In this document: positions 24,348-64,000 of the stretch, in pieces
How positions within the stretch are numbered: the first letter of the stretch is position 1
How the letters are laid out: every line of letters starts with the position of its first letter
DNA from: Schmidtea polychroa
Lineage: Eukaryota
NCBI GenBank assembly: GCA_044892525.1
Contig: CM097886.1
Location: forward strand, 40,300,001-40,364,000
DNA length: 64,000 nt
Reading direction: 5' to 3'
Notes under the pieces: model-generated
Databases searched by the model: none
Told to the model about the DNA's origin: nothing
What the model saw: the letters and a program-made list of their open reading frames with translations, nothing else
Program-made: the position numbers and the translations under genes

Positions 24348-27300
24348 CAATGGCGTAGCAATAGGTTGTGCACGGCACAAGGACCCAGGACGAAAAATTA
24401 GTAAAATTTATACGTTCGAGCATTATAAATTCCCCGATTGTCATTAAACCAAGCATCGCTTTGGCGTTTGTTTTGTTTTTTTTAAGACAGCAACCACAGT
24501 TTGGACGGTTTATACATTTAATATTATTAGGAATCTATATTGGATATAGTTGTAAACCACATATGTCACACCCATTCATCTATTATTTTATTTGCTTTAC
24601 TTGACGTTGGTTTTTTTTATGTGATGAGGACTTGTTTATTAATAAAACGTCAAAAACAAGTTACTTGCCTACTCGATTCAAAATGGCGGTATAGCAGAGG
24701 TCATAGAGTTTTGTTGATATTTACTATGCGGTAAAAAGGATAAAAATAATATTGCTTATTGTATATCAATTTACAATAATTGTATAATTAGTTGGATATT
24801 ATATAATTGCATTAGCTGCACACCCTTAACTATGTCTAAGTCATATTTAAGTGGGGCTGCTAAGCGACGAGCACGTGAGGAACGAGAACAGAAGGCCGCT
24901 AAAATGCCGAAAATTTACGAATTTCTAAAGCCCGTGGATATTAAACCGATATCGAAGACTACTTCAGATATGGTGAGATGGATGTGGCTATAGATGTCGC
25001 CACTGAGCAGAATGACACTGTGGAATCTACGGCGGATGATCAAATATTGACACCAGATTTAGGAAACAGCGCCGACGATGAGAAATATGGCCCTTCAATT
25101 ACTTCAGCTTTTACTCAGAGCAATATTGACACTTTTGTGGAGGCACGAACTGCTTTAAAACATCTCACTGACAAAGCAAATTTAGGAGAGCATTTGTCAA
25201 ATGAACAGAAACGGCTGATAATTTCCTTTGGTCCATGTCAACCTCTTGGTCCGTTTCCACGAGATCTCGGCCAGAAAGGAAGATGCTTCTCCGAATCGTT
25301 TTACAATAAAATCAATAAAGCAGGCGTAAAACTAAAACGAACTACTCTAGCTTATTCGCCTAGTGGCGACTGCGTATATTGCCACGCATGTTGGCTGTTT
25401 TCGAAAAATCGTGATGCGTCTTGGGTAAGAGGATTCCGTGACTGGGGTCATCTGACATAAGTGCTGGATATTCATGAAAAATCCGTCGACCACATACAAT
25501 GTTGCATGGTTCTTGAACAGTGGCGGATGAACAGTACATTGACAGCGGAAATTGAAGATGGCATAAGGAAGGAAGCAAGCTACTGGAGACAAGTTATTGA
25601 CAGAATAGTAAACGTCACGCTTATGCTGGCTGGGGCGAATTTGGCATTCAGAGGCCACCGGGAAAAAGATGTCGGAACTAACGGGAATGAAAACTGTTGT
25701 AATTTCTTGTATGTTATCAACCTACTTGCAAGGTATGATCCCATCCTTGAAAAATTGTTGAGAATGCCCCAAGGTACTGTGAAGTATCTCAGTCCCACCA
25801 TACAGAATGAAGTGATTACCATGGTAGCTCGATGCATCAAGGAGGACATACTTAAAGACGTTACGTCTGTATTGAAACAGACCAAGCAGGCAAACCGGTG
25901 AAGTTGAAAATTTGTGAGTCATTTATGGGTTTTTTGGTGGTCGATGATACATCTGCTAGCGGTCTGTGTGACACTCTTGTAAATAAATGTATTACAGATA
26001 ATGGTTTGGAACTCACCAAACTGCGCAGTCAAGGCTATGACGGTGCGGCTACTATGAGTGGTATTCATTCGGGAGTTCAGGCGCGCATAGTCGCGAAGCA
26101 GCCGAAAGCTGCTTATGTTCATTGCGCGGCTCACAATTTAAACCTTGTTTTGAATGATGCTGTTTCTGACGTTATTGAAGTCAAGAATTTCTTTGGTGTT
26201 CTCGAACAGATCTACGTTTTCTTTGGTCACAGTATACATCGGTGGTCTATGTTGTCACTAGAATGCGAATCGGGTTCGAAACTTACACCGAAAAGATTGT
26301 GTCCTACCAGATGGTCATCAAGATATGACTGTCTCGTTGTCATGCGATTTCGCTTTGGTGATATTTTGAAAGTCCTCACAAGGATCATTCTGACCAGCAA
26401 GAAGAATGATGAAGTAGCAAATGCACTCATGATCAAAAAGAAGATGGAATGTTTTGAGTTTGTTTTTATTCTTGCAATGATGAATAAGATTTTGGAAGCA
26501 ACCCATGCCACCTCAGAATTACTTCAATCTCCGCAGTGCGACCTGACTAAGGCTAATGATCTGATCAAGACATCACATGAAAAATTAGCGCGCATGCGAA
26601 ATCAGTACGATTCTATTGGCGACACTGCTGCTGGCATGGCCACAGCTTGGAAAATTAAAGATCACTTCGAAGACCGGCGTTTAAAAAATACAAAACGACT
26701 TTATGATGAACAATGTCACGACGATCCACTTGCGTCAATTGAGTAACGTTTCAGATTGAACGTATTTTTGGCTACGGTGGATAAAGCATGCAGACAAATC
26801 AAACTGCGATTTCTTAGCCTCAGTTCACTGGCTGCAACGTTTAGCGCTCTGTTACCCTCTACATTATTGATTGCCTCCGACGATGAACTGTATACAGCGG
26901 CCGAATTATTAGCTAAAGAATACGATACCGATATTTCGCCTTCGTTTCCAGCTCAACTGTTGTCATTTCGCGCAAGCTTTCATTCCAATTTAGCCACCAA
27001 ACCAACCATATTCGAAATTGCCCAACTGCTACTTGTGGATTATTATGCTTTATCATCTGCATTCAGTGATGCCTGCACCGCTTACATGTTGCTGTTGACT
27101 TTGCCTGTGACTGTTGCAAACTGCGAACGATCATTTTCCAAATTAAAGCTCATAAAAAACTATCTAAGAAGTACCATGTCTGAAGGGCGATTAACCGACC
27201 TAGCGATGTTATCGATAGAAAACGAACATGCAAGAAAGCTTGACATTTCAAAAGTGGTCGATATTTTTGCTCAAGAGAAGGCGCGCAAACGGCCATTTTA

Positions 27301-27747
27301 ACTTTTGGGATTTTTAGCCTTTGACAAATCTTAAACTTGAATCGTGTCCAACTAAATTAGGACATATGTTTGATTTGTTCTTTCTTTTTATCATGTGATT
27401 CAATTTTATATTATGGTGAAATAAGCGTATGATCTGAGTTTTTTCTAAGAATTATGTTTCAATAAATTAGTGACAATAACAACAATTATTGTTCATTATA
27501 TCATGATGGTACCTGGCATGTGCCCATTCTATATACAGAGAATACCGAGAAGTAACAAAATATCCTTTCAACCCAACCCGAAACGCTACTATTTCTGTTT
27601 TAAAATGCGCAAATTTACTCAGAGAGTTGCTAATCACCTTCCCCCAAGCCTGCCTATGGTTTGGTTTCTCGGATCACTTCGTTCGACAAATATTTTGTGC
27701 GTCCCAAAATCTGCACAAGGGCCCCAGAAATCCTTGGTACACCACTG
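24348..27747 (+). mobile_element. Tip100/ZMYM1-type hAT transposon, 3.4 kb, defective
   Basis: TIR CAATGGCGTAGCAA / revcomp CAGTGGTGTACCAA; TSD TTCGGAGG / TTTGGAGG; contains a transposase pseudogene. Confidence 0.85.
24832..27301 (+). pseudogene. hAT Tip100-family transposase (TTF-type Zn finger, DDE, C-terminal dimerisation domain)
   Basis: MSKSYLSGAAKRR start; YSPSGDCVYCHACWLF; LAFRGHRE; SQGYDGAATMSG; YVHCAAHNLNL; CPTRWSSR; LPVTVANCERSFSKLKLIKNYLRSTMS. Frameshift ~24970, stops at 25458 and 26744, deletion at ~25858. Confidence 0.9.
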
Positions 27748-28958: not shown

Positions 28959-29765
28959 TTAATCAGTTTTAGTTTCTCGTTTTCTTTCTTTGCCCCTTCT
29001 TATTGCTTCCTGAAAAAGTGCCAACCAAAGCCTAATTGTGCATATGGAATCATCATTTCCTGGAATAGGATATGTGATAAGTCGTGGGTCACAGTTAGAA
29101 TCAACAATTCCAACTGTTGGGATTAATAATTTAGCAGAATGTCTAACAGCTGCATGCTGTAGAAATACAGAATTAAGGCAGTGAAGGAAAATAACACAAT
29201 CTGGCAATCTGGTTACAACACCATATACAGTTTCTGAATCGGTAAAATGGCCACCAATCCAAGGTCTGCAATGTGAATATTCACCACATTCTTTGGCGAC
29301 TCTCTCAACTAATGGAATAGTCTATAAAAAGATAATACTGAATAACAATTAATTATGCTACTTGAAAATGTCTCGAAATAAACAAAATTATACCTCCACG
29401 ATATGAAACGTGGGCGATAAAATTCAATGCTTCACCCAATAACTTATATGTTTTGTTTAAATCAAAAATATCAATTCCTTGTCTATTTCCGAATAGATAA
29501 GGAACCATATAAGGATCTCTCACAGATTCTTTATGGCCAAGATGTACTCGATAAGTAAATAAATCTTCAACAGTGCATAAACTTCTCACTCCAAAGTAAT
29601 CATAAGTACTTAATGGATCTACTTGCTCTAAATTAGTTTAACAATAAATGCGAATAATATAAAAGTACCACAAGATTGAGTAATCTCAGAATGTAAAATA
29701 GCTTTAAACGATTTTATAACATTTTGTTTGTAAAAAAATAAATTGCTAAACTTTTGACGCAGCAT
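28959..29765 (-). CDS. MRPS2: Mitochondrial ribosomal protein S2 (uS2m), exons 29765-29669, 29627-29362, 29321-28959
   Basis: Spliced frame MLRQKFSNLF...DPLSTYDYFGV...LFTYRVHLGHK...YLFGNRQGIDIFDL...GEYSHCRPWIGG...PDCVIFLH...IPTVGIVDSNCDPRLITYPIPGNDDS. Confidence 0.93.
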
Positions 29766-30247: not shown

Positions 30248-30467
30248 ATATATATATATATATATAACATTGCACAGGTATTTTTTTAAATGTGACTTGT
30301 GTTGTGACCGAAAGAAGTTCCTTGGAAATAAATCATTTGACTTTATGGAATTTGTAATTGCATAATTAAATTTGTTTTAATATGCAGATTTTGTGATAAA
30401 ATTAGAATTTAAAAAAACGTTGTGATTTCCTTGTGTCAATAAAACTTCAAGCTATCGCGGCTATATC

Positions 30468-31161
30468 ATGGACAAGATGATACCTATTTTCAATGGAGAA
30501 GGTGACGTTCAACAGTGGATTCAGAAAATCAAGCTAGTGGCAAAAATTCAAAGAATCGTGGAGTTGGAATCAATAATTCCTTTATATCTAGATGGACCAG
30601 CTTTTGCAGTGTATCAGCATTTGAGCACAGAAGACAAAGGCAACGCATTGAAGATCGAACACTCCTTAATCGATGTCTATTCGATCGATATGTTCCAAGC
30701 TTATGACCGATTACGTGAACGAAAGTGGTGCAATAAGCCAGTAGATGTCTATTTGAATGATCTCAAAAACTTAGCATCTCTGGCCAAGAAAGATAACGAA
30801 ATCATAATTAAAAGCGCATTCATAATGGGTTTGCCAGCAGTGTCATCACAACAGTTACGATCCAATGCCAATATTCAGCAGATGTCTCTTGTTGAGGTAT
30901 TGAAAACAGTCTCGTGTCTTAGTAAACTGTGACAATATGGAACTGTGTTCGGCTGTCGTGGGAAAAAAAGACAAGAAAAAGAAATGCTCGTATTGCGGAA
31001 AGAATGGCCATCTAGAAGAACGTTGTTTCAAGAAACAAGGAAAGAAGTGTTGGCTATGTGCAGAAGAGGGCCACATTGCAAAGGGGTGTACCAGGAATTC
31101 AGAGTCGGGAAATGCCAAAGGAGTAGCGCGTGCGCCAGCGTCTACTCTAGCACGAATATAA
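30468..31161 (+). pseudogene. Gypsy gag with two CCHC zinc knuckles; one frameshift at ~30910
   Basis: IPIFNGEGDVQQWIQK...; CSYCGKNGHLEERC and CWLCAEEGHIAKGC lie in the +1 frame after the lesion. Confidence 0.85.
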
Positions 31162-33919
31162 TGGCGCTGCAGTTTATTTCAGTCATAATCAATAGGTTGT
31201 CCGTGAAAGCATTGATCGACTCGGGATGTTCCAAATCAGTTGTGTCAGCCAGAATTGCGAAGAAAAAATTTATACGGAATGGGAGTATCATGACTGCGGA
31301 TGGATCACTAATCAAGTGTATGCGTGATGTGAAAGTTCAGCTGATCGTTGGTGGTAGTTTATTCAATGTTAATCGTGTTTCGTTGATGAAACTACTACTT
31401 AATGTTGAAATGATTATAGGAATGGACGTAATAGGGATGCTGGGAGGTCTTAAAATTGACAAGACCGGTGTATCTTTTCCAGGTATTGCAAACGTATCGT
31501 GCATGACTGAGAATCAGTTAAATGAGAATTTGCAAATTGAAGATGGTGATTTTTCGGCAGCATTCAGTGACGGCAAGTGGACGGTGAAGTGGAAATGAAA
31601 AGCAGAACCAGGGTTGCAGCACAAGTTTGACACGGAGGTTGAACGGTGGATTCAAGAAGGATGGCTAATTCCAACGAAAGACGTTGTGTATGGAAAAATT
31701 CCGTTATTGGCAGTAGAGCAAGCAAACAAAGGAAAAGTTCGTCCAGTAATGGATTTTCGAGAACAAAATAAATATGTTAGTAGCCATACTGGACAAAGTG
31801 ATGTATGTGGCGAATCATTAAGGCGATGGCGAATGATGGGCGAACAGGTAATGTTAATTGATCTTAAAAATGCTTATCTTCAGATACATGTTGATGAAGA
31901 CCTATGGGAGCACCAAAGGGTTAGTTACAAAGGGAACGGATACTTTCTAACGAGACTCGGTTTTGGTTTAAATGTGGCTCCGAAAATAATGTCAACAATA
32001 TTACGGAAGGTACTGAGTTTAAGAGAAGATATCAGGAAAGCAACAGATAGTTATATTGATGACATTATTGTCAACCAGTCGAAAATAAACGTCAATGAAG
32101 TAATAGGCCATTTAGCAGCATACGAGCTAATTACAAAGCCACCGGAAGAGTTTGATGATGCAAGAGTGCTAGGTCTCCAGCTTCAAACAAGTATTAACGG
32201 TCGTACGTGGCATCGTGGAAACATTTTGCCACACAGTGCGTTTACAACTATGTCAAGAAGGGAGTTATTTTCCCTCTGCGGTCAACTTGTTTGGCACTAT
32301 CCCGTTGCTGGATGTTTAAGAATAGGAAGTAACTATATAAAACGACACAGTGCTGGAATTAAGTGGGATGATACGATTGGAAAAATCGCGTTAAAAATGG
32401 TTAACGAAATGATGTATCGTGTGAAAGAGAGCGATCCCGTGACTGGTGAGTGGCATGCAAACAAGGACGGATCTACGATTGTCTGGTGCGATGCGAGCAA
32501 TCTGCCATTAGGAGTTGCTTTAGAAATATCAGGAAAAATCGTCGAAGATGCATCATGGATGAGGAAGAAAAACGATTTTTCTCATATAAACCTTGCAGAG
32601 TTAGACGCTGTGATAAAGGGAATTAACTTAGCCATCAGCTGGGAAAGAAGCAACTTAGTTGTAGTAAGAGATTCCGCTACCGTCAGGAGTTGGATAGATT
32701 CAGTTTTAACGGATACTGCCAGAATCCGAACTCATGGAATTGCTGAGATGCTAGTCCGAAGACGTCTGCAGATCATTTGTGAATTACGAAAAAGCTATGA
32801 CTTAACGATCTCGGTTGAGTTAGTCCCGACAGATAAAAACAGAGCAGATGCACTCACAAGAGTCAGTAATAAATGGCTGACATGGGTTAAATCGTGTCTC
32901 GAACCAACTGCAAGCACCGTTGCTGTTGTGAACCAAGTGTTACGAGAAAGTCATAGACAACACCATTTCGGTGCCAAGAAGACGTTGGATTTTGCAAAGC
33001 AACTTTGCCCGGACGTTACACTTGGGGATGTAAAGGCTATAATTAGTGAATGTTCAGAATGTCAATCTATCGACCCGGCGCCTGTAAAATGGGAGCATGG
33101 AGAGTTAAGCGTTAAGGAGACGTGGAAGAGACTGGCTATGGATGTTACACACTATCTAAGTAAGCTTTATTTAACTATGATTGATTGTGGACCGGGTCGT
33201 TTTGCTCTGTGGAGAGAAATAAGAGGTGAAGACGCGGAGACCATTACACGGAATCTTGAACAGATCTTTAGAGAACGAGGTTCCCCTGATGAGTTGTTGA
33301 TTGATAATGCGACATCATTTCGGTCGACACAAATGAAAGTACTGTGTCGCAAATGGAGTGTAAAATGTGTGTTTCGATGTGCTTATCGGCCATCAGGAAA
33401 CGGCATAATAGAACGGAACCATCGTACAATTAAACGCATGGCAGCAAGAACCAACAAGGGAATATTGGAAATGGTATATTGGTATAACCTAGCACCCAAT
33501 GACAAGTGCGGAACGCCGCCGTCTTCATCAGTGTTTTCATATTGCTGGAAAGGATTTGGCGCTTGTTATACAAAAGAGAAGACACAGCACACGCGTTCCA
33601 AGTTGGCGATGCAGTTTACGTTAAACCACCAAATGCGAAGTGCACATCGACATGGGGTGAAGGGATTGTAACGAAGGTAAATTCATCGACTAATTTCGAC
33701 ATCAACAGGATTCCGCGACACTATTCCGACATACGACCGGCTGTCAAAGAAGCGTCAGTGGAGAACAACGACAATGATGGATTAACAGACGTAGACAATC
33801 CTATACTCAACTCACTTCGCCGAGATGAACGTAGAGGCAGGACGAAAAGACCTCGTTATCTTGATGATTTTGAAACCAGTTTTATCGAGAACGAAGATGA
33901 AAATCACGCGGAGATGTAA
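31107..33919 (+). pseudogene. Gypsy pol (protease, RT, RNase H, integrase); in-frame TGA at 31596 and a frameshift near the integrase C-terminus
   Basis: LIDSGCS (PR); RPVMDFR, DLKNAYLQI, LGFGLNVAP, YIDDI (RT); WCDAS, AELDA, RADAL (RNase H); HRQHH..CSEC, MDVT, IDNAT, IERNHRTIK (IN). Confidence 0.92.
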
Positions 33920-34769
33920 TTGCATAATTAAATTTGTTTTAATATGCAGATTTTGTGATAAAAATAGAATTTAAAAAAAACGTTGTGATTTCCTTGTGTC
34001 AATAAAACTTCAGAATTCAATAAATTTTCATTATGGATTGGTGAAAATTGTTTTTTGGGGTTAGGTTCAATTCAAATGACGCTGTTACCACTATTGAGTT
34101 ATGATAGATTAAAACCTAAATATTAACTTCACAATTATACTTTCATGAAAACGCGTAATTCAAAAAACCCAAATGATATCTATTTTTGGATATAGTTGGT
34201 ACTTTACCAACTAGTTTAGAGGCTGAACATAAATATTTCCATAGATATAGGTTCAAGTTCTAATCATCATAATGCTAATAAGAATATTTTATACTATAAA
34301 GTACTCTATTAAAGCGTTACTCAAAGATGCAGTTTCAAAAAGCTGTACAGATTTAATACCTGATATAGAATACTTTTTAAATGCGAAAGTTCAGAAAACT
34401 ACTGGAAAATTAGGAACAAAAATTAATAGATCGCAATGGTAACGTAATAATGAAATATTTAGAAAAAAGATTATGCGAAGACTAGAGGCAAAAAGACAGA
34501 AAGCAAAAGAAATAGGCACAGTTAGGAGTCTAGAAAAAAATACAGAAAGTATTGGTGAAAAAAGAAATTAGAAATAAAGATCACTAATGATAAGAAGGAC
34601 TATTTGCAGTAATCAAACGAAATCATGAAAGAAACTTCTTATTGATTGATAAAAACGAAAGAACTATAACAAAACATATTGATAAAACATTTTAATGGAA
34701 ATGTATATGAGGAGTTCCAAAACTGTGCCGAAAATTCGTGAATATAAAAGTAACATCGATATCCATACT

Positions 34770-36686
34770 AGTAGTATATAGTGAGGACTCCAGGACACTT
34801 TCAAAGTCATCCCAACGTCCAGATCAAATATAGGTCAATCGAATAATTTTATTTATTTATTTATTTTTTTTTAATTTATTTAATTACTTCCATTTAATTT
34901 TTTTTTTAAACTTATTAATTAATTATTTTATTATATTTTTTGTTTTAATTAATTACTTTAATTAATTTTCAATTTATTACATTTAATTAATTAATTATTT
35001 ATTAATATTTTATTTTATTATACTTACGTTATTTAATTCATTTTTTTTTTAATTTTAATTTTTTATTTATTTATTTATTTATTTACCTTTTTTTATTTAT
35101 TATTATTATTATTATTTTTTTTTATTGTTATTATTTTACATTTACATTTAATATATTCTAACAAGAGTGTAAATCGTAAAAAATAATATTTCAATTTGAA
35201 TAAAATTTTAATTAGTAATTATCATAAAATAAAGCTGTGTTAATTTAAAATAAAATGGGCATTGATTTTTCAAAACAAAGCAAAGTTTTTCATGATAAAT
35301 AATAATTCTTACTTAAAACTAATTATCTAAATTAATTGGACAAATGAATTATTAAATGATAAAACATATTTTAATTAACGAAGTCAAATAATTCACAATA
35401 TATATTTTATTATTCACATAAATTTAATTGTTAAAGTGCTTGTTTCGATTTGCATTCGTTTCTAGACATAGCAGTTGCAATATGCATTTGAAGAATCTTA
35501 TAGTGACCGTAGGCATAGCTTTCATTAGAATTGAACCAATACCTTTTATCATCCAAACATTGGAGAGCTCGTTTTTCTGTCATGAAAGTATACAACTGAT
35601 GATTGACACTTCCTATTCTTTTTTGTGGGATGCTCACTGTTCCACCATCAGTATACACTTTTTTATAGGCTTCATGTGTAAGATTAGAGTTTGTAAGTCT
35701 TATTCCTTTGGCTTTTAGAGTGTTTTTATCGCCTTGGAGTGAGTAGCACTTTGGTCGAAGAAACACCCATTCTTTATATTGATTTCCTTTATTCTCATCC
35801 TTAACTTTCCCGATTACAGAACAAATTTTATCAGAGAACAACGGATCGGTCACTGGATAATTTGAAGTATCTAGGAGCCCATCTTCAATCATTTTTGGAT
35901 ATAGTTGTAAGCGTAAATCTACATTTTTACACTCTAAAAAGAAGGAATCTGTGTCACCAGCTACGATATTAATTTGACAATTGAATTCTTCTCTATAACT
36001 CTGTAGTTCTTTATATTGAAATTGGTACATGCGAAGTTTGGATAAATCAAGTACGGTTTGTCCAATATACATTGGTCTATCTAAACACACAATTTCCTTA
36101 TTGAGTATAACAGCAATGAGATCATCCGCAATCTTGATGCTACGACGAAACATAGGATGACTACAATAAGTTATCAATCTTTTGCTTTTGTTGCATAATC
36201 TCAAATTTATACGTTTCTTCAAGTTTTCCACAGTTTTACCGTATAAACTGTTGTTCTTTAACTTATAATAATCTCGCTGAAACGAATCCGTACTAGCTGC
36301 TTTCATTTTGGTATTGTAATCAATATATCCTTTGAAAATAGCCACTTGTTTGAATTCTACAGCACGATTAATTTTTGTGACTTTTGCGCCGTAACTCAAC
36401 CACTCTGTCAAAACTCTACCATTAACTACATAGTTTTTCTTAGGCTCATGAGTTAACAACAGCTTTTCAGCTTTACTACCAGGCGGATACCAAAGCTCAG
36501 GAGCTATAGGTAAATCATCTAGTTTATCTTGTATACTATCAGGAATGACGATGTCAACCTCTAGAACATATCCACGATCTCCATCAAACTCATCCCCATT
36601 TGCACATCTTTCAACAATACCATTCATTTCAGTCTGATCATTTATCCATCTAAATTCATCAACAGGAAGTTTTTGCGACAGCGCCC

Positions 36687-36688
<2 letters not shown>
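34770..36688. repeat. Outer left arm: inverted copy of 46345-48264
   Basis: Near-identical reverse complement, 1919 vs 1920 bp, including the 3' half of polB. Confidence 0.95.
35431..36687 (-). pseudogene. 5'-truncated duplicate of pPolB (starts right after motif A)
   Basis: Matches the C-terminal ~400 aa of 45248-47602 except PGSKAEKL vs PGSKVEKM; lacks the exonuclease domain and DVNNLYG. Confidence 0.92.
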
Positions 36689-38940
<2,252 letters not shown>

Positions 38941-38942
<2 letters not shown>

Positions 38943-40712
38943 CCGTTCACTAAAAGAAAATAATCATTAATATTAGATAGAGAATAAAAAATTATTCACT
39001 TATATAAGTTAAATTAAAAGTTTAAATGACAAACATTTGAAAAGTTACTGCTTATATATTACACATGATTAAATTCTGACCAATCAAAATCAAGGAAGGG
39101 TTAGGAAAAATAAATGCATTACGTTGCAGTATTTTAAAACTTCAATATATTTTAAAACACATTTTGACGCTAAAGTTGACTTATTTAACATTTTCATAAT
39201 AATTTAATAAAAATAATGTGATGAACCCACAAAGTAATATCATTTTTCAAAAAATTGCAAAACAGTAATAACGTTTTCATAAAATTGTAAAAAAGTAATA
39301 ACATATTTCAGATAAATTTTTAACAGTTCTAAAATATTTAAGCAAATTGTAACAAGATTAGAAAATATTACAACAAAGTAGTAACATATTTCAGAAAATT
39401 TCAACAAAGTTGTAAAATATTTATCAAATTGTAACTAAAATAATAAAAATATTGCAACGAAGTAATAAAATAATGATGTTAATTGGGACAAATCAATACA
39501 TTATTTCGAAGACGGACAACAAATTAAAAAGAATATTGTAATAAATTGTGAAGTCTTTCAGTAAATTACAACAAAGTAATAACATATTTCGGAAATATTT
39601 CACCAGATGTAAAATATTTAAGCAAATTGTTATAAGATTATAAAAATATTGCAACAAAGTAATAAAATAATACAACATTTTAAACTCTAGATCAATCCAT
39701 TTTATAGAAAATTAAATTTTATCTCTATAATATATGAATAAATATCCAAGGAAATTACGTTAACGTATAATAAATACAAATTTATCGTAAAAACATGTGT
39801 GTATTACACACAAAACAAGATACATAATTTATAATCAATCCATTTTATAGAAAATTAAATTTTATCTACATATTATACGAATAAAATCCTAAGAAAATTA
39901 CGTTAAATGTATGAAAAATACAAATTTATCGTAAAAACATGTGTGTATTATACACAACATACGAGACGTAATTTTTAATCAAGCTATTTTATAGAAAATT
40001 AAATTTTATCTATATAATATATGAATAAATATCCAAGGAAATTACGTTAACCGCGCGAAAAATACAAATTTATCGTAAAAACGTGTGTGTATTACACACA
40101 AAGCGACAAACTAAAATTTTAATTGAGCCATTTTGTAGAGAATTAAATGCTGCCTATACATGGTTACACTTAAATCCCAATCGGATAAAGAGAAAAGAGA
40201 CAAAGGGGTGAAAAAGAGAGAGAACAAACAGTAGAGTAGGGTAATGTGTGGACCCGGGTGAAACCTTTGCATAGATCTCTTCAAGACCTTTCGAATGATG
40301 TGAATAAAATATAATTAAATTTTAAAATACCGCAACGTAATATATTTAATTATTAAAATACCGCAATGTAATATATTTAATAATTAAAATACCGCAACAT
40401 AACATATTTAATAATTAAAATACCGCAACGTAATATATTTAATAATTAAAATACCGCAACGTAACATATCTAATAATTAAAATACCGCAACGTAACATAT
40501 TTAATAATTAAAATACCGCAACGTAATATATTTAATAAATTAAATACCGCAACGTAATATATTTAATAATTAAAATACCACAACGTAATATATTTAATAA
40601 TTAAAATACCGCAACGTAATATGTTTAATAATTAAAATACCTCAACGTAATATATTTAATAATTAAAATACCGCAACGTTATATATTTAATTATTAAAAT
40701 ACCGCAACGTAA
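38941..40712. repeat. Inner left arm: inverted copy of ~40861-43686
   Basis: Reverse-complement match, with differences in tandem-repeat copy number. Confidence 0.93.
39691..40140. repeat. 143-144-bp tandem repeat, ~3 units
   Basis: Unit anchor atcaatccattttatagaaaatt recurs at 39691, 39834, 39978 and 40122. Confidence 0.88.
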
Positions 40713-41829
40713 TTTCTTTTTTAATTTTTAAATTTTTAAAATTTTTTAAAATTTTTAAATGTATTACTTTGCGGTTTTTTGATTATTAATTTTTTTTTAA
40801 TCTTATTTTAATTTTTTAAATTTTTTTTTAAAATTTTAAAATTTTTTCAAAATTTTTTTTATTACGTTGCAGTATTTTATTTATTAAATATATTACGTTG
40901 TGGTATTTTATTTAATAATTATGTTACGTTGCGGTATTTTAATTATTAAATATATTACGTTGCGGTATTTTAATTATTAAATATATTACGTTGCGGTATT
41001 TTAATTATTAAATATGTTACGTTGCGGTATTTTAATTATTAATTTTTTTTTAATTTTTAATTATTTTTTTAAATTTTAAAATTTTTTTTTATTTTAAAAT
41101 TTTTAAAAAAAATTTTTTATTACGTTGCGGTATTTTAGTTATTAAATATATTACGTTGCGGTATTTTAATTATTAAATATATTACGTTGCGGTATTTTAA
41201 TTATTAAATATANNNNNNNNNNNNNNNNNNNNNNNNNNNNNNNNNNNNNNNNNNNNNNNNNNNNNNNNNNNNNNNNNNNNNNNNNNNNNNNNNNNNNNNN
41301 NNNNNNNNNNNNNNNNNNNNNNNNNNNNNNNNNNNNNNNNNNNNNNNNNNNNNNNNNNNNNNNNNNNNNNNNNNNNNNNNNNNNNNNNNNNNNNNNNNNN
41401 NNNNNNNNNNNNNNNNNNNNNNNNNNNNNNNNNNNNNNNNNNNNNNNNNNNNNNNNNNNNNNNNNTTTATTACGTTGCCGTATTTTAATTATTAAATATA
41501 TTACGTTGCGGTATTTTAATTATTAAATATATTACGTTGCGGTATTTTAATTATTAAATATATTACGTTGCGGTATTCTAATTATTAAATATATTACGTT
41601 GCGGTATTTTAATTATTAAATATGTTACGTTGCGGTATTTTAATTATTAAATATGTTACGTTGCGGTATTTTAATTATTAAATATATTACGTTGCGGTAT
41701 TTTAATTATTAAATATGTTACGTTGCGGTATTTTAATTATTAAATATATTACATTGCGGTATTTTAATAATTAAATATATTACGTTGCGGTATTTTAATA
41801 ATTAAATATATTACGTTGCGGTATTTTAA
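40324..41829. repeat. 31-bp satellite (AAAATACCGCAACGTAATATATTTAATAATT) that flips orientation at ~40712-40861
   Basis: About 13 forward units 40324-40712, then reverse units 40861-41212 and 41471-41829 across the N-gap. Confidence 0.93.
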
Positions 41830-42019
41830 AATTTAATTATATTTTATTCACATCATTCGAAAGGTCTTGAAGAGATCTATGCAAAGGTTTCACCCGGGTC
41901 CACACATTACCCTACTCTACTGTTTGTTCTCTCTCTTTTTCACCCCTTTGTCTCTTTTCTCTTTATCCGAATGGGATTTAAGTGTAACCATGTATAGGCA
42001 GAATTTAATTCTCTACAAA

Positions 42020-42890
42020 ATGGCTCAATTAAAATTTTAGTTTGTCGCTTTGTGTGTAATACACACACGTTTTTACGATAAATTTGTATTTTTCGCGCGG
42101 TTAACGTAATTTCCTTGGATATTTATTCATATATTATATAGATAAAATTTAATTTTCTATAAAATAGCTTGATTAAAAATTACGTCTCGTATGTTGTGTA
42201 TAATACACACACGTTTTTACGATAAATTTGTATTTTTCATACATTTAACGTAATTTTCTTAGGATTTTATTCGTATAATATGTAGATAAAATTTAATTTT
42301 CTATAAAATGGATTGATTATAAATTATGTATCTTGTTTTGTGTGTAATACACACATGTTTTTACGATAAATTTGTATTTTTCATACATTTAACGTAATTT
42401 TCTTAGGATTTTATTCGTATAATATGTAGATAAAATTTAATTTTCTATAAAATGGATTGATTATAAATTATGTATCTTGTTTTGTGTGTAATACACACAT
42501 GTTTTTACGATAAATTTGTATTTATTATACGTTAACGTAATTTCCTTGGATATTTATTCATATATTATAGAGATAAAATTTAATTTTCTATAAAATGGAT
42601 TGATTAGAAATTATGTATCTTGTTTTGTGTGTAATACACACATGTTTTTACGATAAATTTGTATTTATTATACGTTAACGTAATTTCCTTGGATATTTAT
42701 TCATATATTATAGAGATAAAATTTAATTTCCTATAAAATGGATTGATTAGAAATTATGTATCTTGTTTTGTGTGTAATACACACATGTTTTTACGATAAA
42801 TTTGTATTTATTATACGTTAACGTAATTTCCTTGGATATTTATTCATATATTATAGAGATAAAATTTAATTTTCTATAAAATGGATTGAT
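42020..42890. repeat. 143-144-bp tandem repeat, ~6 units, inverse orientation
   Basis: Anchor atggattga at 42308, 42452, 42595, 42738 and 42881, plus diverged units near 42020 and 42165. Confidence 0.88.
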
Positions 42891-43677
42891 CTAGAGTTTA
42901 AAATGTTGTATTATTTTATTACTTTGTTGCAATATTTTTATAATCTTATAACAATTTGCTTAAATATTTTACATCTGGTGAAATATTTCCGAAATATGTT
43001 ATTACTTTGTTGTAATTTACTGAAAGACTTCACAATTTATTACAATATTCTTTTTAATTTGTTGTCCGTCTTCGAAATAATGTATCGATTTGTCCCAATT
43101 AACATCATTATTTTATTACTTCGTTGCAATATTTTTATTATTTTAGTTACAATTTCATAAATATTTTACAACTTTGTTGAAATTTTCTGAAATATGTTAC
43201 TACTTTGTTGTAATATTTTCTAATCTTGTTACAATTTGCTTAAATATTTTACAACTGTTGAAAATTTATCTGAAATATGTTATTACTTTGTTACAATTTT
43301 ATGAAAACGTTATTACTGTTTTGCAATTTGATGAAAAATTATATTACTTTGTGGGTTCATCGCATTATTTTTTATTAAATTATTATGAAAATGTTGAATA
43401 AATCAACTTTAGCATTAAAATGTGTTTTAAAATATATTGAAGTTTTAAAATACTGCAACGTAATGCATTTATTTTTCCTACCCCTTCCATGATTTTGATT
43501 GGTCAGAATATATTTATTTTTCCTACCCCTTCCTTGATTTTGATTGGTTAGAATGTAATCATGTGTAATATATAAGCAGTAACTTTTCAAATGTTTGTCA
43601 TTTAAACTTTTAATTTAACTTATATAAGTGAATAATTTTTTATTCTCTATCTAATATTAATGATTATTTTCTTTTAG

Positions 43678-46600
43678 TGAACGGATGCAGTTTATATAAA
43701 TTTTGTATTGCCGAAAGTCATGAAGATGTGGAGAACTGTAAATCAGTTACATCATCATATTTCAAGATAAATGACTCTACCTTATCGGGTTACATATGTC
43801 CGGAATGTCTCATTATATCACCAGGTAGGTGGTTAATGTTTGTACGACAACACGGACACCATCTTAGAAGATTCGAAGAAACGAAGAGCAGGATGATCAC
43901 TAAAAGTAATACTCTTTCTACTATTAACAATTATTAATTTTTTTTTATAGTTCAATCGAAAATGAATACATCATACGATCCTAAGCAGATTAAAGAATAT
44001 GTTACAAGTTATGTTATTTAAGTTGTTTAATATTAATTATAAATATAGTTAGACAAAACTCTGGCACCGCAAAAAGAAAGTCAATATTTTACGGAAATGG
44101 AGACTCTAACATACAATTGTGTCCACGTCGGGAGTCTGACTTAAATGGTTCTCGTGTTGAATTGACAAGCGATGTATCTGCAATTAATTCTCCTGACATT
44201 GTTGTTCCAGATTGTCTCATCAAAGAAATAGAAGATCATATTCAACGAATGGGGACAGTAAAAATCCAATTTGGACTTTGTGCATAGTTTATCAAAGAGG
44301 ATGGTGAAATTAAAAAATGGTGTTTGTCGAATAAAGCAATTACAATGTCATCTTCATTTATTAATGATGGAATTGAAAAATTAAAAGAAAAGTTGGAGAA
44401 ATACACTCAACAAAGTAGTGGGTGGAGAATTCATAAAATATTAGAAGTTACTATGATTTTAACTAAATTATCAGACATAATACATGTATCTGGTAAGTTT
44501 ATTTACATTATTATATATATAAATCAAGATATTTACTTAGGTTCAAGTTACATTAAAACGCCAAATTACCTGAAAAACTGCCAGGCTTTAGTTAATGTTC
44601 AAAATAATGATCAATTCTGCTTTCTATATAGCATACTGGCCGTATTACATTATGATGACATAAAACATCACAGAGAAAGAGTAATGAAATATAATTTAAG
44701 TGGTAATATATATTTATATCATTCTAAAAATATATATTTAGAGTTAAAATGGAAATCAGATTGGTTTCCAATGAAGATGGTTAACATTTGTCAATTTGAA
44801 GCAATGAATCCTAATCTAGCGATCAATGTTCTCAAATATAATAAGGATCCAATTAAACAGAATAGTGAAAATATTTTCAAGAATCCGTTCGTTGACTTGG
44901 TATATAGAAGTACTTCGACGGGATCTCAGATATATCTCCTATTTATTGAAGATGGTAAAATTTCTTTTAATCATTAGAAATATTAATTAAATTTTAGAAT
45001 TAAATTATCATTATTTGGCTGTAACATTTCTCGATCGACTGCTCAATTACAGAGATAGAGTAGAAGGAGTCAGAATCCAATCACATTGGTGTCATACGTG
45101 TCTTCACGGGTTTCGAAAACGTCCTGCTTTTGAAAGACATATAGGTCTTTATAGGAAAAATGTGGAGCGGACGACTCTATACTCAATGCCAGAGAATAAA
45201 TATATCGAATTTAAAGACTGGAGTAAAACTAAAAACAACAGTTTGTTGTGTACGCGGACTTTGAATCGATATTACCTCTAGACGACAAACACTTCCAAAA
45301 ACATGAGCCGATTGCATCTGAATTTGTGCTTCTTCATCAAGGTTGTCCGATCCGAAATGAAACATTTGTTGGGGAAAACTGTATCATTCAGTTTATACAA
45401 GCCTTGAATGATATAGCTACAGACATAGTTTATCCGTGGTATAAAACTAATGGATCAAAGGAAATGATGGAACTCACCTGGGAACAGCAGGAAGAATTCA
45501 CGACTCAAACACATTGCTACCTTTGTAAAAATATTATCAATATACCTGTTCGAGATCATGATCATTTTACTGGTCAATATCTCGGAGCAGCATGTCAAGA
45601 TTGCAACTTGGCTAGAAGAATCAATCCGTCTTTACCTGTTGTATTTCATAATCTTCGTGGATATGACATTCATCACATATTAAAATATGCAATTGGAAAA
45701 TTCCCCGATTGGAATTTAAATGTTATTCCTCAATCAACAGAAATGTTTCTCACACTTACAGCGACATCGAAAGGCAGAAGAATTAGATTCATTGATTCTT
45801 TACAATTTTTAAATAGCAGCTTGGCAAATTTATCAAAAAATTTACCATGTCTTCCACTGATCTCAGATGTTTTCGAATCACAGATGATGACTTGTAAAAC
45901 CATTTTTCCTTATGATATGGCTACATCAATGGATGTTTTACAGTCAATAACAGAATTACCACCGATTTGGGAGGGAGTTAGTCAAGAAGATTATATACAT
46001 GCAAATCGAATCTGGCAACAATACAACTGTGAGATACTGCTAGATTACATGCTAGTATATCTCAAGCTGGATGTTTTTCTGTTGGCCGTTGTTTTTGAAG
46101 CTTTCAGAGAAAAAACATTTGACGAAGATGGACTTGAGGCTCTATCGTTGGTTTCCATACCCGGATTAAGTTGGGCATCAGCTATTAAACAGTTACCTGA
46201 ACCGGTAGAACTTATTCAAGATCCAGAGCTTTACCGTTTATTTGAAGCTGGTATTCGTGGTGGAATGACATTTATCAACAAACATCATGTTGAAGCTGAT
46301 GAATCCACACAAATGTCATACCTAGATGTTAATAATTTATATGGATGGGCGCTGTCGCAAAAACTTCCTGTTGATGAATTTAGATGGATAAATGATCAGA
46401 CTGAAATGAATGGTATTGTTGAAAGATGTGCAAATGGGGATGAGTTTGATGGAGATCGTGGATATGTTCTAGAGGTTGACATCGTCATTCCTGATAGTAT
46501 ACAAGATAAACTAGATGATTTACCTATAGCTCCTGAGCTTTGGTATCCGCCTGGTAGTAAAGTTGAAAAGATGTTGTTAACTCATGAGCCTAAGAAAAAC

Positions 46601-47602
46601 TATGTAGTTAATGGTAGAGTTTTGACAGAGTGGTTGAGTTACGGCGCAAAAGTCACAAAAATTAATCGTGCTGTAGAATTCAAACAAGTGGCTATTTTCA
46701 AAGGATATATTGATTACAATACCAAAATGAAAGCAGCTAGTACGGATTCGTTTCAGCGAGATTATTATAAGTTAAAGAACAACAGTTTATACGGTAAAAC
46801 TGTGGAAAACTTGAAGAAACGTATAAATTTGAGATTATGCAACAAAAGCAAAAGATTGATAACTTATTGTAGTCATCCTATGTTTCGTCGTAGCATCAAG
46901 ATTGCGGATGATCTCATTGCTGTTATACTCAATAAGGAAATTGTGTGTTTAGATAGACCAATGTATATTGGACAAACCGTACTTGATTTATCCAAACTTC
47001 GCATGTACCAATTTCAATATAAAGAACTACAGAGTTATAGAGAAGAATTCAATTGTCAAATTAATATCGTAGCTGGTGACACAGATTCCTTCTTTTTAGA
47101 GTGTAAAAATGTAGATTTACGCTTACAACTATATCCAAAAATGATTGAAGATGGGCTCCTAGATACTTCAAATTATCCAGTGACCGATCCGTTGTTCTCT
47201 GATAAAATTTGTTCTGTAATCGGGAAAGTTAAGGATGAGAATAAAGGAAATCAATATAAAGAATGGGTGTTTCTTCGACCAAAGTGCTACTCACTCCAAG
47301 GCGATAAAAACACTCTAAAAGCCAAAGGAATAAGACTTACAAACTCTAATCTTACACATGAAGCCTATAAAAAAGTGTATACTGATGGTGGAACAGTGAG
47401 CATCCCACAAAAAAGAATAGGAAGTGTCAATCATCAGTTGTATACTTTCATGACAGAAAAACGAGCTCTCCAATGTTTGGATGATAAAAGGTATTGGTTC
47501 AATTCTAATGAAAGCTATGCCTACGGTCACTATAAGATTCTTCAAATGCATATTGCAACTGCTATGTCTAGAAACGAATGCAAATCGAAACAAGCACTTT
47601 AA
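43678..47602 (+). pseudogene. polB: Protein-primed family B DNA polymerase with five spliceosomal introns (43906-43950, 44008-44048, 44493-44540, 44703-44741, 44955-44997); one TAG (44285) and one frameshift (~45240)
   Basis: SGWRIHKI, GSSYIKTP, VNVQNNDQFCFLYSILA, VYADFES (ExoI), RDHDHFTGQYLGAACQDCN, FHNLRGYD (ExoII), RFIDSLQF, YLKLDV (ExoIII), YLDVNNLYG (A), KLKNNSLYGK (B), GDTDS (C), LRPKCYS, AKGI, DDKR. Removing the GT-AG introns joins the pieces in frame. Confidence 0.9.
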
Positions 47603-48498
47603 CAATTAAATTTATGTGAATAATAAAATATATATTGTGAATTATTTGACTTCGTTAATTAAAATATGTTTTATCATTTAATAATTCATTTGTCCAATTA
47701 ATTTAGATAATTAGTTTTAAGTAAGAATTATTATTTATCATGAAAAACTTTGCTTTGTTTTGAAAAATCAATGCCCATTTTATTTTAAATTAACACAGCT
47801 TTATTTTATGATAATTACTAATTAAAATTTTATTCAAATTGAAATATTATTTTTTACGATTTACACTCTTGTTAGAATATATTAAATGTAAATGTAAAAT
47901 AATAACAATAAAAAAAAATAATAATAATAATAATAAATAAAAAAAGGTAAATAAATAAATAAATAAATAAAAAATTTAAATTTAAAAAAAAATGAATTAA
48001 ATAACGTAAGTATAATAAAATAAAATATTAATAAATAATTAATTAATTAAATGTAATAAATTGAAAATTAATTAAAGTAATTAATTAAAACAAAAAATAT
48101 AATAAAATAATTAATTAATAAGTTTAAAAAAAAAATTAAATGGAAGTAATTAAATAAATTAAAAAAAAAATAAATAAATAAATAAAATTATTCGATTGAC
48201 CTATATTTGATCTGGACGTTGGGATGACTTTGAAAGTGTCCTGGAGTCCTCACTATATACTACTCATACTGTTCCGTAGTCAATTTTTTTAATAAATATA
48301 ATGTTAATTGAAAAGAAATTAGAGATCAAAATCGAAAGAAGTTATAATAATAATTATAATAATAATTATTATTATTATATTATATTATTATTATCTCTCC
48401 CTTAAAAAATATTATTAATTTTCGTTAGTAATTAATTTTTCAGTCAAAATTTAACCAACTAAAAGTATTGAAATATTTACTCTTATTTAGAATACATT

Positions 48499-61815
<13,317 letters not shown>

Positions 61816-64000
61816 CTAATAATATTTTCCATTATTAAAATAGTTCTGATATAAATTTTACCTTTGATTTTATTAATAAATTTTGAAAATTAGAATACAT
61901 AATTTTACGATTCTGATGTTTTAAAAGCAAATAATGAATCGGATTATTTTTGCATATGTATATCTGATTGTTAAATTATGTAACAAATTAATTTTTAATA
62001 GTAATCATTTCGAATAAACAATTTTAAATTACTTGAATTAAGTAAAAATTCTTGCAAAATTATTTTTAAATATAAATACTTTTCATTTATATTAATTATT
62101 ACATTAACTTATAAATTAATTTTAATTTAATACATATTTTAATAAGCAAAATTTAATTAATTTTCATAAAATACATTAATGGCAAAATATTTACATGAAA
62201 AATGGATTACTTCATTACATATCTTTAGCCGCAATGGACATTTTAGTAAAAAGACATTTGAAATTATATTAAGTCACAGTTTTTAGTCAAGTCGTATTAC
62301 AGTTACCAAACCGTCAACTACTTTTGACGGATTTATTGTTGATTTTAATACAACTCACCAAATAAATTTATATGTATTAAACTATTTATATTAACCGAAA
62401 CGTTACAAACACCATGCCAATTATTCCTATAGATGCTTGAATAGAGCTATTGGCACAATTGATATGTGCTATTTTTATGTTTTTGTTCCAGCCATTAATG
62501 ATCGTGGAAAGCGAGTTTTTGGCATGCCTGTAGTATGTCAATGCAACCACCCGTAATTTAAATTTTGTACTCTTTACACATGACATGCTATATAAATAAA
62601 TACAATTTGGGTATTCGGTGGAAAGCAAAAGATTTGGGGGTTGAGGTTAGGAATTGAATTTCTCATTTTGTTGGATTATTGAGAGTACTATCCATGTTAT
62701 CCACCGCTTTCTACACAACCTGTATGGCAAAATCAGTAATCATATGATAGCCGTTTCTAGGCAACATTGGTACTGTGTCAAATTGATAGGTGTTAACAAA
62801 TGAGAACTTTACAAGTCATACGGCCAATGTTCTGTTATTTGAACTCTTCTTGGTTCTAGGAAAAGTAATTCACCATTTTTTGTCTTCTGTGGCCTGAATA
62901 ATGAAAGAGCCATTTCGACGTCACTAGAATGTTGATGAATTTCAGTTTGTATATTCTTGATTTGAATCGTATGCTTGTAGATCAATCCTGTAAAAGCTGA
63001 TTCTCACTCTAGGTGTCTTTGAGTTATCGACTATGAAACATAACGAACTAGTTTGACTTTCTGACATACATTTTTGACTACCTTATCATGCTAATTTTAT
63101 TTCACTCATCCAGATGTATCTATCTTGTGACTACTTAATGACAGAACTTGACAGCATACATTAATAAACGAATTTAGTTCGATAACGCTCTACAATTATT
63201 CTAACAGAAAAACGGGAGTTGCGATTAAAAATATTTTCTTTCGATGATGTCTGGTCAGTCAACAGATTTTCATGAAATTGGCTAGTTACAATCTCGTGTA
63301 AGGTAAAAATCAGACGGGTGGGCTTTCAGTTATGGATAAATGAAACTTTACTAAAAATGAATTAAATATTTCCATTGCCGTTTCTCTATTGATGTTAGAC
63401 GTAAAAAAACAGTAATAATAATGATACAATTGAAGTTTATTTTGTAAAACGTTTCTTTATTTGTTGGTTAAACTTACAAGGAATATACACAAAAACAGGC
63501 GATTTCGGAACATCGAAAAATCTTTTGAAATGTCTTTGAAAATTTTCCTTTTCAACTCTTTCTCGAAAACTTAGTCTATTTTCCCCATTCAAAAAAGATA
63601 AGAATCCCCAAATTTACTTTCTCATTAATATCGCTCTTTTTCATTCGAATTCTTCTGCTAGTGGAAATTCCATCATATGGATTCGATGCCAATATCATTG
63701 TTTCACCTGTCAATGTATCTAAAAAGTTAAATTTTTTCTCATGGCTTTACGAAACTTGAAACGAATAAAATTTCATGTGTAGCTAAATTTGTGGGTTGTT
63801 CATGTATTCTTCCGGTCATTCCTGGCGCACAAAGGAACGTCCCACATATTACTTGCAAATTTATTTCCTTGAATGATCTGTTAATGAAATAAAATATATA
63901 AAGACATTCATAATTTATAAAAGGTTGTAATGATTATTAACATATTAATAACATACATAAAATTACAAATAACAAATTCATGTACTCATTTAATAGATCC

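Follow-up and report, generated by a model that had tools for sequence, protein, structure and literature searches.

Probable spliceosomal introns in the DNA polymerase gene of a polymerase-only palindromic Polinton derivative in Schmidtea polychroa

A protein-primed DNA polymerase gene (polB) in the genome of Schmidtea polychroa is very probably interrupted by six spliceosomal introns and carried by a polymerase-only palindromic derivative of a Polinton, a reading to which we assign a probability of roughly 0.88. The gene lies within a stretch of 64,000 nucleotides (assembly GCA_044892525.1, contig CM097886.1, positions 40,300,001 to 40,364,000), hereafter called the window. A first-pass annotation of this DNA had described a virus-type protein-primed DNA polymerase, and the match of its last exon to PF03175 (E 9e-28) bears this out. 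The features of the element and of the gene are as follows (window coordinates).

34770..48264, no strand: whole element, a palindrome of 13,495 nt with Polinton-type ends 5'-AGTAGT...ACTACT-3' and a 6-bp duplication, CATACT
34770..36688, minus strand: left arm, comprising the element end and the 3' part of the mirror polB
36690..38942, no strand: inverted host UGP2 DNA replacing most of the left-arm polB, a copy of 53001-53747 and 53795-55306
39619..42890, no strand: palindrome centre, partly N, with mirror arrays of 31-nt and 143/144-nt tandem repeats
43450..43627, plus strand: putative promoter containing a TATA-like word (near 43570), together with the presumed end of the 5' exon, as suggested by reading the sequence
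43628..43677, plus strand: predicted intron I0, 50 nt, phase 1; unchanged in length in all of the 30 best copies
43678..43905, plus strand: exon 1, Cys/His-rich, probably a zinc-binding module; no Pfam hit
43906..43950, plus strand: predicted intron I1, 45 nt, phase 1; 42-47 nt among the 30 best copies; site common to L163/L149 and L166
43951..44007, plus strand: exon 2, linker, 57 nt
44008..44048, plus strand: predicted intron I2, 41 nt, phase 1, with the weak donor GTTATG
44049..44492, plus strand: exon 3, terminal-protein-like (D1, little-finger fold), from the P0004 model and site mapping
44493..44540, plus strand: predicted intron I3, 48 nt, phase 1, placed between terminal protein and protease; site common to L154 and L160
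44541..44702, plus strand: exon 4, start of an OTU-like protease with the predicted catalytic Cys (NDQFCF)
44703..44741, plus strand: predicted intron I4, 39 nt, phase 1; found in no relative
44742..44954, plus strand: exon 5, middle of the OTU-like protease
44955..44997, plus strand: predicted intron I5, 43 nt, phase 1, directly before the predicted catalytic His; site common to L154 and L160
44998..47602, plus strand: exon 6, protease end, exonuclease with an endonuclease-VII-like insert (PF02945, E 6e-4) and family B polymerase (PF03175)

The five GT-AG introns of 45, 41, 48, 39 and 43 nt proposed at first reading are present in the window sequence at 43906-43950, 44008-44048, 44493-44540, 44703-44741 and 44955-44997; all five begin with GT and end with AG, and their A+T content is 84-90%. 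To these we add a sixth segment, I0 (43628-43677, 50 nt), which ends directly before the originally reported start of polB and splits the start codon, the one base before it and the two after it spelling ATG (A|TG). All six segments cut a codon after its first base (phase 1), and exons 1-5 are therefore all multiples of three; the probability of six phase-1 sites is about 0.003 under a null that reflects base make-up only and not host phase frequencies. Removal of the segments makes the motifs HVSG|SSYIKTP and IEDE|LNYHYLAV contiguous, just as had been claimed. When AT-rich GT-AG candidates were chained across 43680-45200, passing over the window copy's own stop, 24 chains restored the frame, and the 45-, 41- and 43-nt segments were used at the same coordinates in 24 of 24. 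Frame restoration by I1, I2 and I5 is more than chance, and the placement of I3 and I4 is set by homology, as judged from sequence alignment. It had also been stated that splicing yields a single frame, which holds for these chains but not for the window copy itself, where, even after splicing, the frame is broken by a stop codon (44285-44287) and by a frameshift (near 45230); this copy is a dead member of its family. Similarly, the statement that introns are confined to the N-terminal side stands insofar as the exonuclease and polymerase regions are uninterrupted, but the last exon begins inside the protease domain. I1 holds an in-frame stop. I3 (48 nt) and I4 (39 nt) are multiples of three and stop-free in the window copy, in agreement with the earlier description. 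With GT...AG ends, an AT-rich interior and lengths of 39-50 nt, the polB segments match the host size class, six host introns read in the window measuring 40-59 nt, which confirms the size comparison made at first reading.

A protein search with exon 6 matched 1293 proteins, and the 80 proteins of at least 1000 residues among the best 120 of these were used for homology scoring. With X written at joints and breaks, the joined N-terminal part was matched by all 80 long homologs, and the query scored higher with I3 removed than with I3 kept in 75 of 80, and with I4 removed in 73 of 80. Alignment of the spliced protein to intronless homologs had been suggested as a check, and among the best 22 homologs I3 and I4 correspond to exact gaps of 16 and 13 residues in 22 of 22, so that none of the aligned homologs encodes the 48- or the 39-nt segment, and the I5 joint is contiguous. 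I1 and I2 fall in a variable linker, where alignment alone leaves their placement unfixed. At the N-terminus, the homologs P0015 and P0029 begin with MN-x-C exactly at the split A|TG, where the first Met aligns. Homologs of up to 61% identity occur outside the host's own family. A search of viral contigs with P0015 gave no match, and one with the alignment retrieved only 12 distant relatives at 25-34% identity.

The domain context was examined in a structure model of residues 1-450 of an intronless relative, P0004 (mean pLDDT 80). The model begins with a small Cys/His module. Residues 110-227 resemble the PolIV little finger, as seen in the match to 4ir1 (Z 8.3, rmsd 2.4, 92 aligned). Residues 241-372 resemble OTU proteases, with 4bop (Z 6.1, rmsd 3.4, 104 aligned) as one match among many OTU rows, and within them Cys260 and His363 are invariant in 63 rows. 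The N-terminal part gave no Pfam family, and the best E value in a PDB sequence search was only 0.12. In the portion of PMC11161782 available to us, the order of pPolB domains is given as TP-vOTU-exonuclease-palm, together with the hypothesis that the protease frees the terminal protein; at middling Z scores, the modelled domains of P0004 are the terminal-protein and vOTU domains of that study. I1-I5 map to P0004 residues 77, 100, 234, 288 and 359, with the predicted terminal protein bracketed by I2 and I3 and the protease cut between its Cys and His by I4 and I5.

A 24-mer across the I3 donor has 676 matches in the 781 Mb genome, corresponding to approximately 676 arms, and exon-joined 24-mers for I3 or I5, which would reveal processed copies, have 0 genome matches. 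In the 30 best DNA hits, taken regardless of intron state, I1 occurs in five lengths (42-47 nt) and I4 in three (39, 41 or 51 nt), the 41-nt form, which breaks the frame if kept, being present in 9 of 30; exon length changes were seen in 5 of 150 cells. A set of 60 copies, which includes copies picked for breaks, contains 14 in which I4 is not a multiple of three, and exons 1-5 are in frame and stop-free in 13 of these 14. In every copy I1, I2 and I5 are frame-breaking, the AT-repeat cores of I3 and I4 expand in single copies, and the codon at 44285-44287 is a stop in 5 of 60. Splice letters are kept in 1428 of 1440 cases across the 60 copies; none of 24 splice letters varies versus 24 of 242 interior sites, only about two being expected to vary. 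From 66 loci, 4 were dropped from the dN/dS set and 6 from the 60-copy set for poor exon cover. Among variants common to at least 5 of 62 loci, in which related copies are not independent, dN/dS is 0.26 in exons 1-5 (p 3e-5; 20 silent and 21 replacement changes over 214 and 875 sites) and 0.22 in the examined part of exon 6, and values between subfamilies are 0.18-0.34. For variants confined to one copy, dN/dS in exons 1-5 is close to neutral (0.71; Fisher p 0.007 versus shared variants); the exon-6 singleton count was inflated by cut-off loci and was left unused. The signal comes mainly from exons 4 and 5, the silent/replacement counts in exons 1-3 being 1/3, 0/1 and 3/3. Judged from these variants, the joined exons are under purifying selection, and the shortage of replacement changes both before and after I5 suggests that selection was at work during the subfamilies' recent spread.

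RNA was examined for polB as contigs of four of the 15 runs listed, X1, X2, X3 and X5 (at most three samples from two studies), with X1-X4 as host control. RNA contigs lie in or across I0, I1, I2, I4 and I5, and no joint across any of the six introns was found in the contigs of the four runs. Contigs of X1 bridge I0 and I2 unspliced, and those of X2 pass through I1, over I2 (with 24 letters on one side only) and 16 letters into I5; I3-I4 lie outside the coverage of the X2 and X3 contigs. In the host control, the UGP2 introns of 59 and 46 nt are spliced in X1, an X2 exon contig runs on into the next host exon, and a repeat with a depth of 8,547 in X1 is uncovered in X2 and X3. The spliced host introns and the uncovered repeat indicate that the runs hold RNA and that X2 and X3 hold little DNA; X1 covers unique intronic and repeat DNA, and its polB depth may therefore be DNA or pre-mRNA. 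Contigs drop rare forms and carry no strand, and the unspliced polB contigs represent unspliced RNA or DNA background rather than an absence of splicing. Bulk polB RNA may be read-through, antisense or silenced; the part of PMC8532177 that we could consult describes repression of planarian Polintons by SMEDWI-2 piRNAs, so that bulk RNA may be read-through or silenced.

The window polB gene sits in the right arm of the palindrome. Six further whole elements follow the same plan, with two outward polB genes and central tandem repeats; their arms are up to 99.9% alike and often have an identical lesion in both arms, and their ORFs of at least 100 aa are polB pieces, antisense frames of these, or repeat frames. 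Target duplications of 6 bp were found at 3 elements, and further ones in later samples. Among the first 100 I3 donors listed, 58 are in head-to-head pairs and 0 in tail-to-tail pairs, and in two sets of 30 element ends all ends lead into palindrome-family sequence. A partial mirror arm is present at 9 of the 12 copies listed without a partner. Neither integrase, ATPase, TBP nor putative capsid genes were found within 10 kb upstream of these 12 unpartnered copies, and inward of 30 ends the probes for integrase, ATPase and putative capsid matched nothing; those for capsid and penton were themselves putative, presumed from their motifs without Pfam support. The gene thus belongs to a polB-only palindrome and not to a whole autonomous Polinton. 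Complete elements with integrase, A32 ATPase and TBP do exist in the genome, with different polB and ends; one complete element whose ends were read has only AGTAG in common with the palindrome ends, and no complete parent element was reached from the family ends in the samples examined. Given the polB-only content and the complete families elsewhere in the genome, it is likely that the integrase is borrowed and that integration occurs in trans.

Several other observations concern the family and its neighbours. The inverted UGP2 exon/intron copy in the left arm (36690-38942 versus 53001-55306) is 99.7-100% identical to its source and is either a recent rearrangement or an assembly artefact. 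Twenty ends of the second set of 30 (L271-L274, L276-L291; G000:C1, 0.38-1.22 Mb) have one flank in common and are in many cases spaced about 4.5 kb apart; they form a tandem or segmental array near a chromosome end and were counted as one insertion. In addition to integrase and A32 ATPase, the complete relatives L149 and L043-L045 have a short gene of the TBP family (PF00352, E 3e-17 and 2e-15). A sister polB family lacking I1-I5 also forms a head-to-head pair (L235-L236), and a more distant Polinton type, with a polB about 26% identical (L244-L247), adjoins or is nested with the TBP-bearing type. Several palindromes (L040-L045, L270, L272, L275, L278) are inserted in genes of other Polintons. 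A target preference for other Polintons was considered; insertion in a Polinton gene was seen in 2 of 6 fetched elements, but Polinton DNA was found at only 1 of 30 and then 4 of 30 end flanks, and the preference is not established.

A metagenome scan was made in which 75 loci were kept, the best-ranked 27 being examined. Four of them (L141, L142, L150, L151) are one frame from near the first residue. L154, which is 45% identical to the window gene in the N-terminal part and 55% in the polymerase, has four phase-1 GT-AG segments, two of which (43 and 44 nt, frame-breaking) are at the I3 and I5 sites, and L160 has frame-breaking phase-1 GT-AG segments of 43 and 48 nt at the same two sites. L164 and L167 start in AT-rich sequence ending in AG at the I5 acceptor. 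L163/L149, L166 and L156 have linker introns only, three or four in number. Every intron is phase 1 in the one chain of L163, and likewise in the chains listed first for L166 and L156, for which alternatives containing a phase-2 step also exist. I1 aligns with the first intron of both L163 and L166. The comparison of intron positions among Polinton families that had been recommended thus shows the I1, I3 and I5 sites recurring in relatives, and no clearly shared site was seen for I0, I2 or I4 in the relatives examined. Sister polB families in the same genome run through the I1-I5 sites unbroken, with a candidate phase-1 intron at the first Cys in one of them. Introns at shared sites are dissimilar in sequence (z at most 1.3), and when 14 introns were compared among themselves 3 of 91 pairs reached z of at least 2.5, none at a shared site, and no introner-type repeated family appeared. 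Neither target duplications nor terminal repeats were evident by eye at the intron edges; in old introns such marks would have disappeared. Two trees, one built on the interrupted region (34 rows) and the other on the downstream region (49 rows), both nest the intronless L151 and the linker-only lineages beside L154. The three I3+I5 lineages are rejected as a clade (p-AU 1e-53; fewest changes 3), the tree having been seen before the test. Two structural details were also noted. Mini-exons are repeated between phase-1 introns in the polB linker of L156 (80-470); symmetric exons can duplicate, which may explain linker introns, not I3-I5. L154 (140-380) seemingly starts with two mini-exons and is without the N-terminal Cys/His module.

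Two other explanations deny that the segments are introns in present use, and both draw on the RNA contigs, in which only unspliced forms were seen. An origin of the segments as inserted coding sequence, or as AT-rich debris of dead copies, would agree with I3 and I4 being multiples of three and stop-free in the window copy and with the expansion of their AT-repeat cores in single copies, but it conflicts with the exact gaps in 22 of 22 homologs, with the breaking of the frame by I1, I2 and I5 in every copy, with an I3 donor kept at 676 matches while joined I3 or I5 exons occur at none, and with the interruption of distant relatives at the same sites by unrelated GT-AG sequence; we consider it extremely improbable. 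The introns might instead be ancestrally functional and now unspliced, with polB as baggage in palindromes that are copied entirely by helpers. Many copies do contain stops or frameshifts that are often identical in the two arms, and a family without integrase must already borrow functions; nevertheless, shared variants are poor in replacements (0.26 and 0.22) against 0.71 for single-copy variants (Fisher p 0.007), which makes this account improbable too. The dependence on the host spliceosome proposed in the first-pass annotation is supported by the comparative evidence from homologs, copies, relatives and frame-restoring chains, in favor of spliceosomal introns.

A further question concerns history only. 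Because at least three sites are common to distant relatives, the introns are not simply a recent gain in the host. The shared sites might reflect parallel gains at favoured positions or recombination between families, and it is true that the three I3+I5 lineages do not form a clade (AU p 1e-53), that intron sequences at shared sites are unlike each other (z no higher than 1.3) and that the phase-1 state of all sites implies some positional bias. However, parallel gain would need two sites to be hit jointly two or three times, and the trees of the interrupted and downstream regions agree on the nesting of L151 and of L149/L163/L156/L166, so that module swapping is unneeded; we regard these alternatives as rather unlikely. 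A single old gain, followed by repeated exact loss, is the more economical history suggested by the sequence comparisons, since gains in parallel would have to strike two sites jointly on more than one occasion. Loss via cDNA is expected to retain 5' introns longest, and the longest persistence of 5' introns in the polB clade would fit cDNA-mediated loss by analogy.

Under the spliceosomal reading, host RNA polymerase II would read outward from the palindrome centre, and the host spliceosome would remove the six introns, thereby creating the ATG and yielding a single protein of about 1,235 residues with zinc-finger, terminal-protein, OTU-protease, exonuclease and polymerase parts. As hypothesised in PMC11161782, the terminal protein may then be freed by the protease, and the element would be replicated from its ends by the polymerase, with integrase and particle proteins likely supplied by other, complete Polinton families in the genome. 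I1, I3 and I5 at least would be old and likely lost cleanly in several related lineages. More tentatively, and as a possibility short of probable, the phase-1 introns could have been gained long ago by an animal Polinton clade and lost cleanly, 3'-first, via cDNA of its own spliced mRNA, the six-intron lineage described here being a polymerase-only palindromic satellite whose polymerase is turned on by regulated splicing while the bulk RNA stays unspliced.

The gene resembles those of animal Polintons/Mavericks (eupolintoviruses, adintoviruses) in its PF03175 polymerase, AG...CT ends and 6-bp duplication, and Polinton pPolB in its little-finger-like D1 and its OTU-like D2 with Cys and His ahead of the exonuclease; as in Polintons, the polB of the relative L149 and of a sister family in the host genome adjoins integrase, A32 ATPase and TBP genes. 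It differs in that polB has six introns and the element consists of polB only, in two mirror arms, and, unlike an autonomous Polinton, the element is devoid of integrase, packaging ATPase and capsid genes. It works as a Polinton replicase gene, not as an autonomous Polinton. In adenoviruses, the E2B mRNAs for the polymerase and pre-terminal protein have their start in a short exon upstream, which the host spliceosome attaches, and the present gene is likewise a protein-primed polymerase with a start from a short spliced upstream exon; unlike in adenovirus, introns also cut conserved domains, terminal protein and polymerase form one gene, and the element is integrated. Copy-back (snap-back), non-autonomous derivatives of transposons and viruses have mirror arms and intact ends and are missing the mobilising enzyme, all of which applies here; in contrast to such derivatives, the polymerase is kept under purifying selection, and no complete parent was found in the samples examined.

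Polinton polB genes had been described as generally intronless, and the accessible parts of two studies agree: intact vertebrate Mavericks are without introns (PMC8097293), and in a nematode element the core genes are intronless, with introns in cargo genes (10.1101/2022.07.12.499685). The accompanying remark that intron gain is known in nematode Polintons found no counterpart in the sections seen of that study or of PMC10748475, which deals there with group I introns only. What we saw of PMC12166617 reports introners in dinoflagellate polinton-like viruses, mostly as old as the introns of the host or younger; the present case is similar in having spliceosomal introns within a Polinton-like element, and unlike introners its introns have no common sequence family and retain their sites in relatives whose proteins are 45-55% identical. 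A different case is that of the group I introns of cryptophyte elements, treated in the consulted part of PMC12220804. Nothing further on Polinton polB introns was seen in the parts available of PMC10748475, PMC6431247, PMC8502044, PMC9683012, PMC10680173 and 10.64898/2026.10.13.758929. Neither introns in the polB of animal Polintons nor such palindromes were described in the literature that we searched, and planarian Polinton records in Repbase or supplements may already annotate a spliced POLB. Since Polinton core genes are both described and surveyed as intronless ORFs, intron-split polymerases would be called truncated or dead, or be missed. Introns kept across 45-55% identity would show long nuclear transcription and host-spliceosome dependence of the lineage, and their patchy, nested distribution would offer a compact system for studying intron loss from a DNA replicon without reverse transcriptase. 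The all-phase-1 pattern is unexplained and testable, and a selected polymerase-only palindrome bears on Polinton replication and on the sharing of functions in trans.

The remainder of the window contains both host genes and other mobile elements. A host UDP-glucose pyrophosphorylase gene (UGP2; Pfam UDPGP) occupies 48495-61900 on the minus strand, its apparent last exon lying about 230 nt from the element end, and RNA reveals a further 46-nt intron near 61815-61861. An LTR retrotransposon with reverse transcriptase and integrase hits and direct repeats at both ends is located at 30353-34012. Decayed DNA-transposase-like frames, which we take to be hAT-like from their motifs, occur at 15227-16958, 24945-27301 and about 59600-61000, one of them with a DUF4371 hit. 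In addition, a host cation-efflux family protein gene (17756-22470, plus strand) and a ribosomal protein S2 gene (28959-29760, minus strand) have introns of 40-44 nt.
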